Origin: Eledone cirrhosa
Taxonomy: Eukaryota
Assembly: GCA_964016885.1 (NCBI GenBank)
Contig: OZ024743.1
Span: forward strand, 268,770,001 to 268,834,000
Reading direction: 5' to 3'
DNA: 64,000 nucleotides
Shown: piece after piece, positions 2,427 to 43,924 of the stretch
Layout: each line of letters begins with the position of its first letter
Position numbering within the stretch: the stretch's first letter is position 1
Notes under the pieces: model-generated
What the model saw: the letters and a program-made list of their open reading frames with translations, nothing else
The model's database searches: none
What the model was told of the DNA's origin: nothing
Program-made: the position numbers and the translations under genes

Positions 2427-2545
2427 GGAATAGAATGAAACGAAATTTCATTTCTCACTCTTAGTCTGGCACTTACTGCTCAGCCGTTAATTTTCATAAG
2501 GAAAGTATATACTTTCGGACGTTCAACCATCTGGCAGAAAGGTAT

Positions 2546-2588
2546 ACGGGGCTGACGATAGCTAACAAGCTTGAAACTAGTACATCGT
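2546..2588 (+). ncRNA. Type I hammerhead ribozyme motif
   Basis: ACGGGG-CUGACGA-uAGCU aaca AGCUu-GAA-ACUAGU-A-CAUCGU. Stem I pairs 5 of 6 and stem III is palindromic. Confidence 0.7.
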
Positions 2589-2822
2589 TCCTGTGTCAGT
2601 GTTGAACAAAAAGGTGACGTGGTTGCCTAAACACTGTACGGCGTAATTCAGGCTGTTTGTTTGTTTACAAACGAACAAACCGAGCATTATAATAAATGTT
2701 CGGTAAACTAATACGTGCATATATATATATGTGTGCCTGTATGTATATATATACATGCTACTGTACGTCTGTATACATATATGTATGTACGTATACATAC
2801 ATACTTACATATATATATATAT

Positions 2823-3104: not shown

Positions 3105-3372
3105 ATTCAATCTGTTGGTAATTCAACAAATATAAATGTTATAACTGATTCAGAGCACTCGACAGCTTTTCTGGAGTATAATATTCAATGATATTAAGGA
3201 AAGCTTGAACCGTTAAGGTATTTTCCTTGGTTATGTCAAAATTTATAAAACACACTTGGTATTTTATCTGATGAAAGCGTACCAAAGTTTTGGTAACCTT
3301 GAAATATATATAATAGAATAAATATGGTTTTATAAATATAGTTTCCATTTATTTAATATCATTGAATATTTA
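3105..3372 (+). mobile_element. PLE terminal-repeat remnant with hammerhead-like motif (3261-3313)
   Basis: Similar to the termini of the 25645-28027 Penelope element. Contains CUGAUGA-AAG..UACCAAA/UUUGGUA..CUU-GAAA. Confidence 0.65.
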
Positions 3373-23026: not shown

Positions 23027-23222
23027 TTTTTCGGCGGAAGCAGGAGAGCACGTGGCTCTGATGAACGCCAACAAGCGTAAAACAGACTGTCAGCTTCTCT
23101 CCCTTCTTTCGCCGAAAAGAAATAAGTGACATAGTCACTATTTTAAAACTGATAGCGTATGGTCTTCTAAATGTGTTTATTTAAAGATACGGTATATTAC
23201 CAAATCTACTATACATACATTC
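23027..23222 (+). ncRNA. Long-hairpin hammerhead repeat, copy A (G12 mutated to A)
   Basis: GCU-CUGAUGA-ACGC caacaa GCGU-AAA-ACAG a CUGU-C-AGC (23055-23094), inside the outer stem uuuucggcggaag / cuucuuucgccgaaaa. Confidence 0.75.
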
Positions 23223-23235
23223 ATATATATATATA

Positions 23236-23584
23236 TAAACGTTTGTATTTGTAAAGCCAAAACAATGCAGGTATGGATATAGAATATAAATGCAAATGCA
23301 AAAGATGTTGTTGACAATTAGTCTTTTACCTTAAATTTATTTAAATATCCTTAATTTTCGAGATAATATCTCTTCTTTGGAGGGAAGTAAGTTGAGGTAA
23401 GCTATTTAGAACGCTGGTTTAACAACTTTACTACCCTCCGAAGAAGAGATATTATCTCAAAAATTAAGGATATTTAAATAAATTTAAGGTAAAAGACTAA
23501 TCGTCAACAACATATTTTGCATTTGCATTTATATTCGATATCCATACCGGCATTGTTTTGGCTTTACAAATACAAACGTTTATA
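23236..23584. repeat. ~350-bp palindrome with a degenerate minimal hammerhead in each arm
   Basis: Arms of about 150 bp. The arm consensus is CCU-CCGAAGA-a-GAGAU auu AUCUC-GAA-AAUU-A-AGG. Confidence 0.85.
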
Positions 23585-23821
23585 TCTCATTACACAATGC
23601 TTCAAGTGAACTATAACTTCCTCCTATATATATATAGAGAGATATTATAAAGATTCGGGCTGAACTCTTTCGGTTTCAACAGCTAGTTCCAAACTGTTTA
23701 AACGACCAGATTTCAGAAGTATGGGTCGCGGTTCTTTATAATATAACCATACTCTGCTACCCCAAGTATCAATTACTCTGTTGAGTAATGGTCTAACCAG
23801 TTTCATACTGAATCCAACCTG

Positions 23822-23881
<60 letters not shown>

Positions 23882-23944
23882 GTGTGTGTGTGTGTAAGTA
23901 TATATATGTATATTGTTAAACATATTTAAATATATATATATGTG

Positions 23945-24405
23945 TATATTGTTATACTTGGGGAGGGTCATCTTGTTGTAATAATTGTTTCTACTTTAGG
24001 CACAAGGCCAGCAATTACCCAGTGCATTACTGGTACTTTATTTTATCGACCCCGTAAGGACGAAAGGCAAAGTCAACCTCGGTGGGATTTGAACTCAGAT
24101 CGTAAAGGGACGTAACTATGCTGGAAAGCATGGTGTCTGACCCTCTACCGATACTGCGAATCCACCGAATAATATTGCCAGAAATAATAACAGAACACTT
24201 ACTCTTTGATTTATTTTCGCTTCTGCATCTTTATATCTCCATAGTTAATTTATTTGGCAATCAATGCTTATCATTGACTGACCATCGGTTAAAAATGCAG
24301 ATATAAATATATATATATATATAGTCTAACAAAGTTCTTTCGTTGCACATCTGCAACATCATCAGTGGTACCATTATCATGTTCCCTCCTATTGTGTTAT
24401 ATTGT
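23945..24405 (-). mobile_element. Copy of the PLE terminal-repeat family of 61403-62610, interrupted by a SINE
   Basis: tattgttatacttgggagggtcat...ttctttcgttgcacatctgcaacatcatcagtgg. Hammerhead with CUGAUGA core on the minus strand at about 24328-24370. Confidence 0.75.
23982..24167 (-). mobile_element. tRNA-derived SINE
   Basis: Near-identical to 10402-10560. Confidence 0.85.
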
Positions 24406-24429
24406 AATGTTCAGAAGAAAAAAATATAT

Positions 24430-24674
24430 ATCGCTCTGTATAATCAGCTCCTGGTTATTACTGGAATTCTATAAGAATCCAGCTTATATAATTTTCGGCG
24501 GAAGCAAGGAGTGCGTGGCTCTGATGGTCGCCAAACAGCGTGAAACAGACTGTTACCTTCTCTCCCTTCTTTCGCCAAAAAGAAGTAAGTAACATAGTCA
24601 CTACTTTAAAAACGATAGCGTATGGTCCTCAAAATGTTTTTAATTAAACATACGGTATATATACTATACATACA

Positions 24675-24680
<6 letters not shown>
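24430..24680 (+). ncRNA. Long-hairpin hammerhead repeat, copy B (A9 mutated to G)
   Basis: GCU-CUGAUGG-uCGC caaaca GCGu-GAA-ACAG a CUGU-U (24518-24554), with the same outer stem as copy A. Confidence 0.7.
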
Positions 24681-24735
<55 letters not shown>

Positions 24736-24926
24736 TAGTATTGGTGCTCTGAAATAGCGACGTATATATGAATGTATGTTTAGTGTATTTGATAATATAA
24801 TGTATGTTTAATTAAAGATTGAAGACCATTTGCTATGAATTTAAAAGTAGTGACTATACGTACATTGGTATATACATCGCTATTTAAGAGCACCAACACT
24901 AATACCTAATTTTTACTGAACCGGCA

Positions 24927-25180
24927 ACCGCTCTATTTAATCAGCTCATAAATATTACTGGAATTTTATAAGAATCCATGTACTATAACTCTTGGCAGAA
25001 GCGAAGAGGTGAGTAGTCTTGATAACCGCTAACGAGTGAGAAACAGGACTGTCGATTACGCCCCATTGTTTTTGCCGAGAATAAGTACGTGACATTGTCA
25101 CTACTTTAAAATTCATAGCGAATCGTCTTCAAAATGTTTTTAATTAAACATACAGTATATCATCAACTATACTATACATG
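24927..25180 (+). ncRNA. Long-hairpin hammerhead repeat, copy C (U3-A8 core, covarying stems)
   Basis: GUAGUC-UUGAUAA-cCGCU aacg AGUGa-GAA-ACAG ga CUGU-C-GAUUAC (25013-25059). Outer stem ucuuggcagaagcga / uuguuuuugccgaga. Confidence 0.8.
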
Positions 25181-25258
25181 AATGGGCATGTTATTTTTAT
25201 CTAAAGACATTTTTTCCAATTCCAACCCACCCGTCCCCTCAATCTATTTCTCATTCTT

Positions 25259-25294
25259 TCTTCTGATGAAGGACTAGCGTCCGAAACGTTAAGA
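25259..25294 (+). ncRNA. Minimal PLE-type hammerhead motif
   Basis: UCUU-CUGAUGA-a-GGAC uagc GUCC-GAA-ACGU-U-AAGA. Homolog at 31640-31675 with a shared ~90-nt tail ending in microsatellite. Confidence 0.75.
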
Positions 25295-25378
25295 CCCTCT
25301 TCCTGCTATATCAAGCGTTAACTTAATATATCCCTTCTATATACTGTACCGATTGTGTTGTTATTTATGTTTACCTTT

Positions 25379-25460
<82 letters not shown>

Positions 25461-39659: not shown

Positions 39660-39865
39660 ACATCGTTATTATCAAAATCATCATCAAGAACATAGTTAAT
39701 TTTATCGGCATCATTATCATCTTCTTCACCATAACCATTATCATCATCACCCCCTCCCCCCATCTTCATCATCATCTTCTTCAGCATAACCATTATCATC
39801 ATCATCATCATTATCATCAGCATCACCATACCCACTTAATCATTATCATCAGCATTATCATCACT
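39130..39865. repeat. (CAT)n/(CTT)n trinucleotide array
   Basis: Direct inspection. Confidence 0.9.
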
Positions 39866-39869
39866 AACA

Positions 39870-42800
39870 ATTACGTTATATCAGAATATGTGAGAATTAC
39901 GTAATATAAGAATATGTAAGAATTACGTTATATCAGAATATGTAAGGATTACGTTATATCAGAATATGTAAGGACTACGTTATATCAGAATATGTAAGAA
40001 TTACGTTATATGAGAATATGTAAGGACTACGTTATATAAGAATATCTAAGAATTACGTTATATCAGAATATGTAAGAATTACGTTATATCAGAATATGTA
40101 AGGACTACGTTATATCAGAATATGTAAGGACTACGTTATATCAGAATATGTGAGAATTACGTTATATCAGAATATCAAAGAACTACGTTATATCAGAATA
40201 TGTGAGAATTACGTTATATCAGAATATGTAAGAATTACGTTATATCAGAATATGTAAAAACTACGTTATATCAGAATATGTAAGAATTACGTTATATCAG
40301 ATTATGTGAGAACTACGTTATATAAGAATATGTAAGAATTATGTTATATCAGAATATGTAAGAATTACGTTATACCAGAATATGTAAGAATGACGTTATA
40401 TCAGAATATGTGAGAATTACGTTATATCCGAATATGTAAGAATTATGTTATATAAGAATATGTAAGAATTACGTTATATCAGAATATGTGAGAATTACGT
40501 TATATCAGAATATGTGAGAATTATGTTATATAAGAATATGTAAGAATTACGTTATATCAGAATATGTTTAATTACGTTATATCCGAATATGTAAGGATTA
40601 CGTTATATAAGAATATGTAAGAATTACGTTATATCAGAATATGTAAGAATTACGTTATATCAGAATATGTAAGGACTACGTTATATCAGAATATGTAAGA
40701 ATTACGTTATATCAGAATATGTAAGGACTACGTTATATAAGAATATGTAAGGACTACGTTATATCAGAATATGTAAGAATTACGTTATATCAGAATATGT
40801 AAGGACTACGTTATATCAGAATATGTAAGGACTACGTTATATCAGAATATGTGAGAATTACGTTATATCAGAATATGTAAGAATTACGTTATATCAGATC
40901 ATGTGAGAACTACGTTATATAAGAATATGTAAGAATTATGTTATATCAGAATATGTAAGAATTACGTTATATCAGAATATGTAAGAATTACGTTATATCA
41001 GAATATGTGAGAATTACGTTATATCCGAATATGTAAGAATTACGTTATATCAGAATATGTGAAAACTACGTTATATCAGAATATGTAAGAATTACGTTAT
41101 ATCAGATTATGTGAGAACTACGTTATATAAGAATATGTAAGAATTATGTTATATCAGAATATGTAAGAATTACGTTATATCAGAATATGTAAGAATGACG
41201 TTATATCAGAATATGTGAGAATTACGTTATATCCGAATATGTAAGAATTATGTTATATAAGAATATGTAAGAATTACGTTATATCAGAATATGTGAGAAT
41301 TACGTTATATCAGAATATGTGAGAATTATGTTATATAAGAATATGTAAGAATTACGTTATATCAGGATATGTTTAATTACGTTATATCCGAATATGTAAG
41401 GATTACGTTATATAAGAATATGTAAGAATTACGTTATATCAGAATATGTAAGAATTACGTTATATCAGAATATGTAAGGACTACGTTATATCAGAATATG
41501 TAAGAATTACGTTATATCAGAATATGTAAGGACTACGTTATATAAGAATATGTAAGGACTACGTTATATCAGAATATGTAAGAATTTCGTTATATCAGAA
41601 TATGTAAGGACTACGTTATATCAGAATATGTAAGGACTACGTTATATCAGAATATGTGAGAATTACGTTATATCAGAATATGTAAGAATTACGTTATATC
41701 AGATCATGTGAGAACTACGTTATATAAGAATATGTAAGAATTATGTTATATCAGAATATGTAAGAATTACGTTATATCAGAATATGTAAGAATTACGTTA
41801 TATCAGAATATGTGAGAATTACTTTATATCCGAATATGTAAGAATTACGTTATATCCGAATATGTAAGAATTATGTTATATAAGAATATGTAAGAAGTAC
41901 GTTATATCAGAATATGTAAGGACTACATTATATCAGAATATGTACGAATTACGTTATATCAGAATATGTAAGAATTACGTTATATCAGAATATGTAAGGA
42001 CTACGTTATATCAGAATATGTGAGAATTACGTTATATCAGAATATGTGAGAATTACGTTATATCAGAATATGTAAGAACTACGTTATATCAGAATATGTA
42101 AGAATTACGTTATATCAGAATATGAAAGAATTACGTTATATCAGAATATGTAAGAATTACGTTATATCAGAATATGTAAGAACTACGTTATATCAGAATA
42201 TGTAAGAATTACGTTATATCAGAATATGTAAGAATTACGTTATATCAGAATATGTAAAAACTACGTTATATCAGAATATGTAAGAATTACGTTATATCAG
42301 ATTATGTGAGAACTACGTTATATAAGAATATGTAAGAATTATGTTATATCAGAATATGTAAGAATTACGTTATATCAGAATATGTAAGAATGACGTTATA
42401 TCAGAATATGTGAGAATTACGTTATATCCGAATATGTAAGAATTATGTTATATAAGAATATGTAAGAATTACGTTATATCAGAATATGTGAGAATTACGT
42501 TATATCAGAATATGTGAGAATTATGTTATATAAGAATATGTAAGAATTACGTTATATCAGAATATGTTTAATTACGTTATATCCGAATATGTAAGGATTA
42601 CGTTATATATGAATATGTAAGAATTACGTTATATCAGAATATGTAAGAATTACGTTATATCAGAATATGTAAGGACTACGTTATATCAGAATATGTAAGA
42701 ATTACGTTATATCGGAATATGTATGGACTACGTTATATAAGAATATGTAAGAATTACGTTATATCAGAATATGTAAGGACTACGTTATATCAGAATATGT

Positions 42801-43686
42801 AAGAATTACGTTATATCAGAATATGTAAGGACTACGTTATATCAGAATATGTAAGGACTACGTTATATCAGAATATGTGAGAATTACGTTATATCAGAAT
42901 ATGTAAGAATTACGTTATATCAGATCATGTGAGAACTACGTTATATAAGAATATGTAAGAATTATGTTATATCAGAATATGTAAGAATTACGTTATATCA
43001 GAATATGTAAGAATTACGTTATATCAGAATATGTAAGAATTACGTTATATCCGAATATGTAAGAATTATGTTATATAAGAATATGTAAGAAGTACGTTAT
43101 ATCAGAATATGTAAGGACTACATTATATCAGAATATGTAAGAATTACGTTATATCAGAATATGTAAGAATTACGTTATATCAGAATATGTAAGGACTACG
43201 TTATATAAGAATATGTGAGAATTACGTTATATCAGAATATGTGAGAATTACGTTATATCAGAATATGTAAGAATTACGTTATATCAGAATATGTAAGAAT
43301 TACGTTATATCAGAATATGAAAGAATTGCGTTATATCAGAATATGTAAGAATTACGTTATATCAGAATATGTAAGAACTACGTTATATCAGAATATGTAA
43401 GAATTACGTTATATCAGATTATGTGAGAACTATGTTATATAAGAATATGCAAGAATTATGTTATATCAGAATATGTAAGAATTACGTTTTATCAGAATAT
43501 GTAAGAATTACGTTATATCAGAATATGTGAGAATTACGTTATATCAGAATATGTAAGAATTACGTTATATCAGAATATGTAAGAATTATGTTATATAAGA
43601 ATATATAAGAAGTACGTTATATCAGAATATGTAAGAATTACGTTATATCAGAATATGTAAGAATTATGTTATATCAGAATATGTAA
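39870..43686. repeat. 26-bp satellite, about 147 units, with higher-order repeat
   Basis: Unit ttacgttatatcagaatatgtaagaa. Diagnostic variants recur at 805-bp and 1195-bp spacing. Confidence 0.97.
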
Positions 43687-43924
43687 GTAGATCAGTACTC
43701 CTTAGAATACTATTTCCAGCCTTAGCTTCCGAAAGCTACATTCCCACCACCCACAACCAGCCCAACCACCACCCATAACCAGTCCAACCACCACCCACAA
43801 CCAGCACAACCACCACCCACAACCAGTCAAGCCACCATCCTAACCACACATTTACCAAGATAGCCAAACCCCAAAAGCAATCATCATCACAATCCATCAT
43901 AATTAAAACATCAACAGCATAATT

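Follow-up and report, generated by a model that had tools for sequence, protein, structure and literature searches.

A high-copy, non-coding hammerhead family of Eledone cirrhosa, probably a non-LTR retrozyme, with inverted multimeric arrays in (TA)n targets

The window analyzed here, a 64,000-nucleotide stretch of Eledone cirrhosa DNA, contains a cluster of related repeats (Table 1). The initial annotation described three copies of a ~250-bp repeat. Three related copies were indeed present close to where it had placed them, but copy C starts at ~24871 instead of 24927, copies A and B are 5'-truncated, the actual unit measures 308-320 bp, and a fourth, inverted piece at 24735-24862 had been overlooked. 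This piece, arm D, is joined to copy C at the 5' ends, and the two form one insertion within the (TA)n tract 3' of copy B; the tail of arm D is a short extension that repeats the first ~33 bases of the unit. The cluster consists of three insertions, and the window copies are non-tandem. Their clustering had been used as an argument for a retrozyme; this was mistaken, because the clustering results from shared (TA)n targeting; the genome is rich in (TA)n.

Table 1. Positions of the family members and their structured parts in the window
Feature	Position	Strand	Description
Copy A	23028-23224	+	5'-truncated, B lineage (A10.1-U11.1 variant); its 3' terminus coincides with that of the unit and is followed by (TA)n
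Copy A type I hammerhead	23052-23097	+	C3 at 23058, G8 at 23063; predicted cut position after 23091
Copy B	24430-24679	+	5'-truncated unit of the B subfamily
(TA)n tract 3' of copy B	24680-24734		Target of the D+C insertion
Arm D	24735-24862	-	Inverted, 5'-truncated C-type arm; tail of ~33 nt at its 3' end (24735-24767)
Copy C	24871-25179 (24872-25183 in the profile search)	+	Almost complete unit; forms the arm in direct orientation of the D+C insertion, which is two-armed; without a tail
Copy C enclosing hairpin	24990-25080	+	15-bp outer stem, 24990-25004/25066-25080
Copy C type I hammerhead	25013-25059	+	U3-A8 core; 10.1-11.1 mismatched (C.A); cut predicted to follow 25053
3' hairpin domain of the unit (copy C)	25085-25179	+	Ahead of two reverse-transcription start sites inferred from the 3' ends of insertions; domain based on folds and alignment

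Each of copies A and B has a core mutation of its own, G12A at 23079 and A9G at 24527, respectively, the latter together with a stem I break at 24556; relatives from a public run have the canonical base at all three positions. Judging from these changes, the ribozymes of both copies are likely inactive. When compared with 200 shuffled sequences, the folds of copies A (z -5.6) and C (z -5.8) were better than all shuffles, and that of copy B was marginal (z -1.75, 10/200 shuffles). Rfam gave no more than a sub-threshold hammerhead match on copy A (HH9, 22.6 bits; cut-off 52); the miRNA matches among the 150 of 264 whole-window matches listed were microsatellite-driven and were discarded. As members of their family, the copies in the window are unremarkable and for the most part decayed.

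Several other repeats were observed in the window and elsewhere in the genome. A very high-copy SINE-like repeat lies between copies A and B (23979-24170, - strand), and we take it to resemble octopus tRNA-derived SINEs; the SINEs and other repeats are suggestive of an octopod cephalopod. A long palindrome with (TA) ends at 23225-23585 looks like a two-armed 3'-end insertion of another Penelope-like family, and similar sequence was found after an ORF at locus L171. Directly after copy C, within ~25180-25380, there is a minimal hammerhead with a palindromic stem III (25260-25293, + strand), which probably belongs, as terminal repeat, to another Penelope-like family of very high abundance. A 26-bp minisatellite of 147 copies occupies 39865-43687. 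Three more hammerhead families were noticed. The second ORF-less family, seen at 2512-2616 (+) of the window, L171:7700-9900 and L172:197-300 and 3222-3328, has a ~490-510-bp unit with an internal (TA)n tract and the octamer ATGCAAAT, and four tandem hammerheads in L171. The third (L170:7760-7900, L176:9700-9850 and L166) has a stem II as in subfamily E of the present family and ends only ~35 nt after the cut, often in short palindromic two-armed insertions. The fourth, a hammerhead-like repeat at L177:3324-3427 and L170:1513-1609, was found through a covariance model.

Five DNA queries of the 3.0-Gb genome yielded 3261, 2475, 3399, 1585 and 49 first-look candidates; the 49 belonged to the E type, and for each of types A, B, C, F and I the first-look candidates numbered in the thousands. 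Forty evenly spaced 10-kb samples (400 kb) contained 3 loci, from which the genome total is estimated at ~20,000-22,000 loci (95% interval ~4,600-66,000). The unit has 34-38% GC, no credible ORF and no LTR. At least five subfamilies (B, C, E, F and I) were distinguished, with references 72-84% identical to one another. Identity among the best-matching copies was 98% within E, 95% within I, 94% within B, 90% within C and 84% within F, and E is the youngest subfamily. The loci taken were the best-scoring matches and not a random sample, and diverged subfamilies are undersampled. Upstream of the hammerhead, the octamer ATGCAAAT occurs in 16/23 F copies (e.g. L010:2365-2690) versus 1/148 others; it is a possible snRNA-type promoter element. 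At L050 a host sulfotransferase frame (PF03567; 2033-3217, + strand) adjoins a B copy.

The family has a type I hammerhead with a conserved core and a 6-bp stem I within a long closing hairpin, and loop 2, a candidate for tertiary contact with loop 1, reads YAANNA in all five subfamilies. The letters quoted in the initial annotation were correct, including the 15-bp outer stem of copy C and the cut predicted after 25053, and its central claim, that hammerhead and enclosing hairpin covary, was borne out. Over 59 natural copies of four subfamilies (B, C, E and F), 88.9% of cells were paired, versus 44-53% for slid partners. No subfamily contributed more than 22 copies, and alignment A2 omits 3 copies with indels. 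Both sides were altered in 20/31 pairs overall, including 9/13 in the outer stem and 4/6 in stem I, where compensatory change had been proposed; these are counts of related sequences rather than of events, drawn from a comparison of five subfamilies, and the shuffle control ignores relatedness. The proposed switch of the core pair also held, with C3-G8 in 30 copies, U3-A8 in 28 and a mismatch in 1. In a tree built without the core (35 rows), the C-G subfamily B grouped with the U-A subfamily I (support 95/99), and the C-G subfamily E stood apart from the U-A subfamilies C and F. Therefore, at least two double core-pair switches, or recombination, must have occurred. Together, the covariation and the core-free tree support selection on RNA structure in the parental subfamilies, as had been suggested.

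Two details of the proposed structure were revised. The stem II change given as ACGC/GCGU to CGCU/AGUG amounts mostly to a shift by one base, with a private G-U pair added, and is for the most part a register error because B and C both have CGC/GCG; true compensation is found in the other subfamilies (E, TTC/GAA; F, CAC/GTG; I, TAC/GTA). Stem III, described as constant, varies across the family. Position 10.1-11.1 was unpaired in 55/59 copies, being U.U in most B and E copies and C.A in C and F; I has G-C and the A variant A-U. The mismatch seen in most subfamilies may slow cleavage. The core pattern is intact in 40/52 B, 24/32 C, 17/19 I, 8/23 F and 42/45 E copies, and U3-A8 is a known, active natural hammerhead variant (PMC3088659). 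When the monomer is opened at stem III, its fold brings both ends together (z -5.0), and a second structured domain, with compensatory changes in I and E, spans the unit junction. The family also offers a natural hammerhead series in which the core pair has switched repeatedly between C3-G8 and U3-A8 and mismatches occur at 10.1-11.1.

The ends of the insertions follow a regular pattern. In B, C and I, 3' ends lie at the unit end or 32-43 nt past it, mostly followed by (TA)n, which defines two fixed 3' ends ~33-40 nt apart. Tails were borne by 10/42 B, 13/30 C and 8/16 I loci; none was detected in 23 F loci. Tandem arrays, which the initial annotation had proposed to look for, are present in the young subfamily E and not in the window; older subfamilies mostly have 1-2 units. 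Among 37 E insertions fetched, 27 were two-armed, 8 single-armed and 2 unresolved (overlapping loci L061-L085, L128, L130 and L272 were skipped in counts). Their arms face outward, run head-to-tail for up to 19 units each and are joined at their truncated 5' ends. A tail was found on exactly one arm in 23/24 complete two-armed E insertions (P = 3e-6), the exception, L256, having two; in older subfamilies a crude automatic count, with three loci counted twice, gave 30/39. At L125/L007 a young E array has inserted into the (TA)n tail of an older C insertion with two arms, a nesting like that in the window.

The units within an array are strikingly uniform. In the 30 arrays with at least 3 units, 196/249 units carried the haplotype of their own array; 21 haplotypes were found among the 30 arrays, each common to both arms and extending over up to 21 units, although polishing of the assembly, or unequal exchange following insertion, may have exaggerated this homogeneity. 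Mixed arrays also occur: one variant appears alternately in L114, the variant changes within an arm in L117 and L120, and a double variant recurs in L111. None of these four patterns is accounted for by a pure monomer circle. The 5' ends of the arms are spread across the unit, and the 4/62 that fall near the predicted cut (178|179 of the E unit) are not significantly more than the 2.4 expected; since arm ends do not pile up at the cut, the template was continuous there. Nearly all of the 249 units continue seamlessly across the cut; one unit in L117 has a 43-nt duplication that starts exactly at the predicted cut. A supposed mutation hotspot at the predicted ligation site (position 179, 5/83 sporadic changes) was dropped, as the events fall in two arrays and are not independent. 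Contigs of four runs containing the head-to-tail joint were set aside as evidence of circles because these runs contain the adjacent SINE and further repeats as well, as would be expected of genomic DNA.

Seven Penelope-like reverse transcriptase (RT)/endonuclease ORFs matched none of 109 upstream flanks of the unit. An eighth Penelope-like fragment matched 3/109; in the two same-strand cases (TA)n and additional sequence lie between the match and the unit, and the third match is on the opposite strand. The possibility raised at the outset that all copies are ordinary termini of a coding Penelope-like element was thereby checked, and no Penelope-like ORF adjoins the unit in these 109 flanks. 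The genome has >10,000 GIY-YIG candidates, several with RT and GIY-YIG frames and a CX4CX2C linker, which is typical of Neptune/Nematis (PMC8557442). Six families termed Neptune-like, on the basis of domain frames and the linker motif, have minimal hammerhead-like motifs, several with U3-A8 or with U.U at 10.1-11.1, and terminate in (TA)n at either of two sites separated by 35-66 nt; their two-armed loci, read by eye, had one end of each kind in 11/11. The unit showed no nucleotide homology to the six Neptune-like terminal repeats (z at most 2.1), and a partner search over 50 loci, including these families and one further fragment, found no sequence shared with it. The tandem hammerheads beside an ORF in L171 belong to a separate ORF-less family. 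Most likely, the partner is one of the (TA)n-targeting Neptune-like families; a further Penelope-like family at L020, with a U.U hammerhead and (TA)n ends, is a rival candidate.

Given the unit without an ORF and the tandem arrays of its young subfamily, a non-LTR retrozyme-like family, as first proposed, is the best reading. The copies are probably insertions of a high-copy, non-coding non-LTR retrozyme whose RNA likely cleaves itself, likely becomes a circle and is likely copied into (TA)n microsatellites by a Penelope-like enzyme acting in trans. In the mechanism that we propose, arrays would be transcribed and the RNA would cleave, probably as dimers via its short, mostly palindromic stem III, a feature that favours dimeric cleavage (PMC4209133). 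A host ligase would close the cleaved RNA into a ~310-nt circle. A Penelope-like reverse transcriptase/endonuclease would be supplied in trans, and its dimer would nick both target strands; two cDNAs would be primed at two start sites on one RNA, each enzyme circling the template for up to ~19 turns, and their 5' ends would be joined, often by microhomology. The one-tail rule would then arise because two subunits prime at two sites on one RNA, and the multimers of both arms would be seamless and homogeneous because the template is circular. We infer transcription, cleavage, ligation and the partner. A Penelope-like protein for which a dimer is predicted has been shown in vitro to cut both strands of AT-rich DNA and to extend each of them; it initiates at two sites inside the RNA, and these define the tail (PMC11167929). 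Whether each young array is the fossil of bidirectional rolling-circle reverse transcription, by a protein dimer on one circular ribozyme RNA with two fixed starts, so that outward-facing multimers enter both strands of a (TA)n break, we consider evenly balanced.

The strongest competitor, which we hold to be unlikely, is a non-autonomous Penelope-like element copied from linear, mostly uncleaved multimers, so that the hammerhead merely trims and a circle is unneeded. It stays alive because uncleaved linear RNA was the main in vitro substrate, and insertion in vitro was unaffected by hammerhead mutants (PMC11167929). The ordered variants of the mixed arrays L114, L117, L120 and L111 also speak for it, as do ORF-less head-to-tail elements of Chlamys, in a clade described without canonical hammerheads (PMC8557442). 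However, the fixation of the 21 haplotypes over many units and both arms means that a single-monomer bottleneck is needed somewhere, arms of 13-19 units would require 4-6 kb of RNA uncut at every unit, and the core is nevertheless under selection. It is much less probable that repeated template jumping on hammerhead-cut linear monomers, without ligation, produced the arrays; the duplication at the cut in L117 and the non-independent changes at position 179 would suit this, but nearly all cut-site junctions are seamless and arm ends are not enriched there. Least probable of all are solo terminal repeats of a coding Penelope-like element followed by satellite growth through unequal crossing-over (a route in 10.64898/2026.07.22.740005), since, even though tail, inversion and hammerhead resemble those of coding elements and a coding parent may exist outside the best 40 candidates scored per search, the flanks held no ORF-linked copy, both arms of the inverted insertions are multimeric, with ends exactly on the two start sites, and variants common to both arms at many dispersed loci are not what satellite growth in place would produce.

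The route by which animal retrozymes return to the genome is hypothetical (PMC7229834; 10.64898/2026.07.22.740005). Here, near-identical young insertions record the event in their ends, arms and shared variants, and this record agrees with the pair of start sites that a Penelope-like protein uses in vitro (PMC11167929). The value lies in young arrays elsewhere in the genome, not in the window copies; these arrays make circle-templated integration directly testable and provide a good test system for retrozyme integration. If the circular reading of the arrays is true, they would be genomic proof that animal retrozyme circles serve as integration template, and bidirectional rolling-circle copying would account, for Penelope elements at large, for the tail being on one side. 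Literature searches listed no paper on cephalopod retrozymes, this family or two-armed retrozyme arrays, although the family may already be recorded in Repbase, Dfam or supplementary data; the main text of PMC7229834 has no mention of octopus or cephalopods.

Set against known systems, the family has the marks of a non-LTR retrozyme: a type I hammerhead, small size and GC <50%, tandem copies and neither ORF nor LTR. From the autonomous Penelope-like elements it lacks the RT and GIY-YIG ORF but has the partial tandem, the inverted 5' arm and the 30-40-nt tail. Metazoan non-LTR retrozymes, as defined in PMC7229834, likewise are ORF-less, GC-poor units of 150-450 bp with a type I hammerhead, range from monomers to long tandems and coexist with Penelope-like elements, through which their mobilization was proposed. 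RNA circles were demonstrated for them in coral, mussel and axolotl and are predicted for the Eledone family; the Penelope footprint on the insertions themselves (two start sites, one-sided tail, inverted multimeric arms and (TA)n targets) does not appear to have been described in that account. For vertebrate non-LTR retrozymes (10.64898/2026.07.22.740005), with many monomers and some multimers, Penelope dependence was likewise proposed, from co-occurrence and terminal-repeat homology. Local tandem growth was suggested there, whereas the junction anatomy described here points to arrays made at insertion, and no such homology to a coding element was found here. Poseidon of Anolis (PMC11167929) and Neptune and others (PMC8557442, PMC4209133) resemble the family in a hammerhead upstream of two start sites, a 30-40-nt tail often at one end, an inverted 5'-truncated arm and AT-rich targets; inverted arms and one-sided tails have been described for coding Penelope-like elements (PMC8557442), and the U3-A8 core occurs in Penelope-like Cercyon (PMC4209133). 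Poseidon and Neptune, however, combine a minimal hammerhead with an ORF, whereas the Eledone element lacks an ORF, consists entirely of the repeat unit and has a stem I of 6 bp. Chlamys elements such as MRC1 (PMC8557442) are also ORF-less Penelope derivatives with multicopy head-to-tail insertions; they generally share 3' sequence with an autonomous family, whereas the Eledone unit, with no shared sequence detected, has kept a conserved hammerhead.
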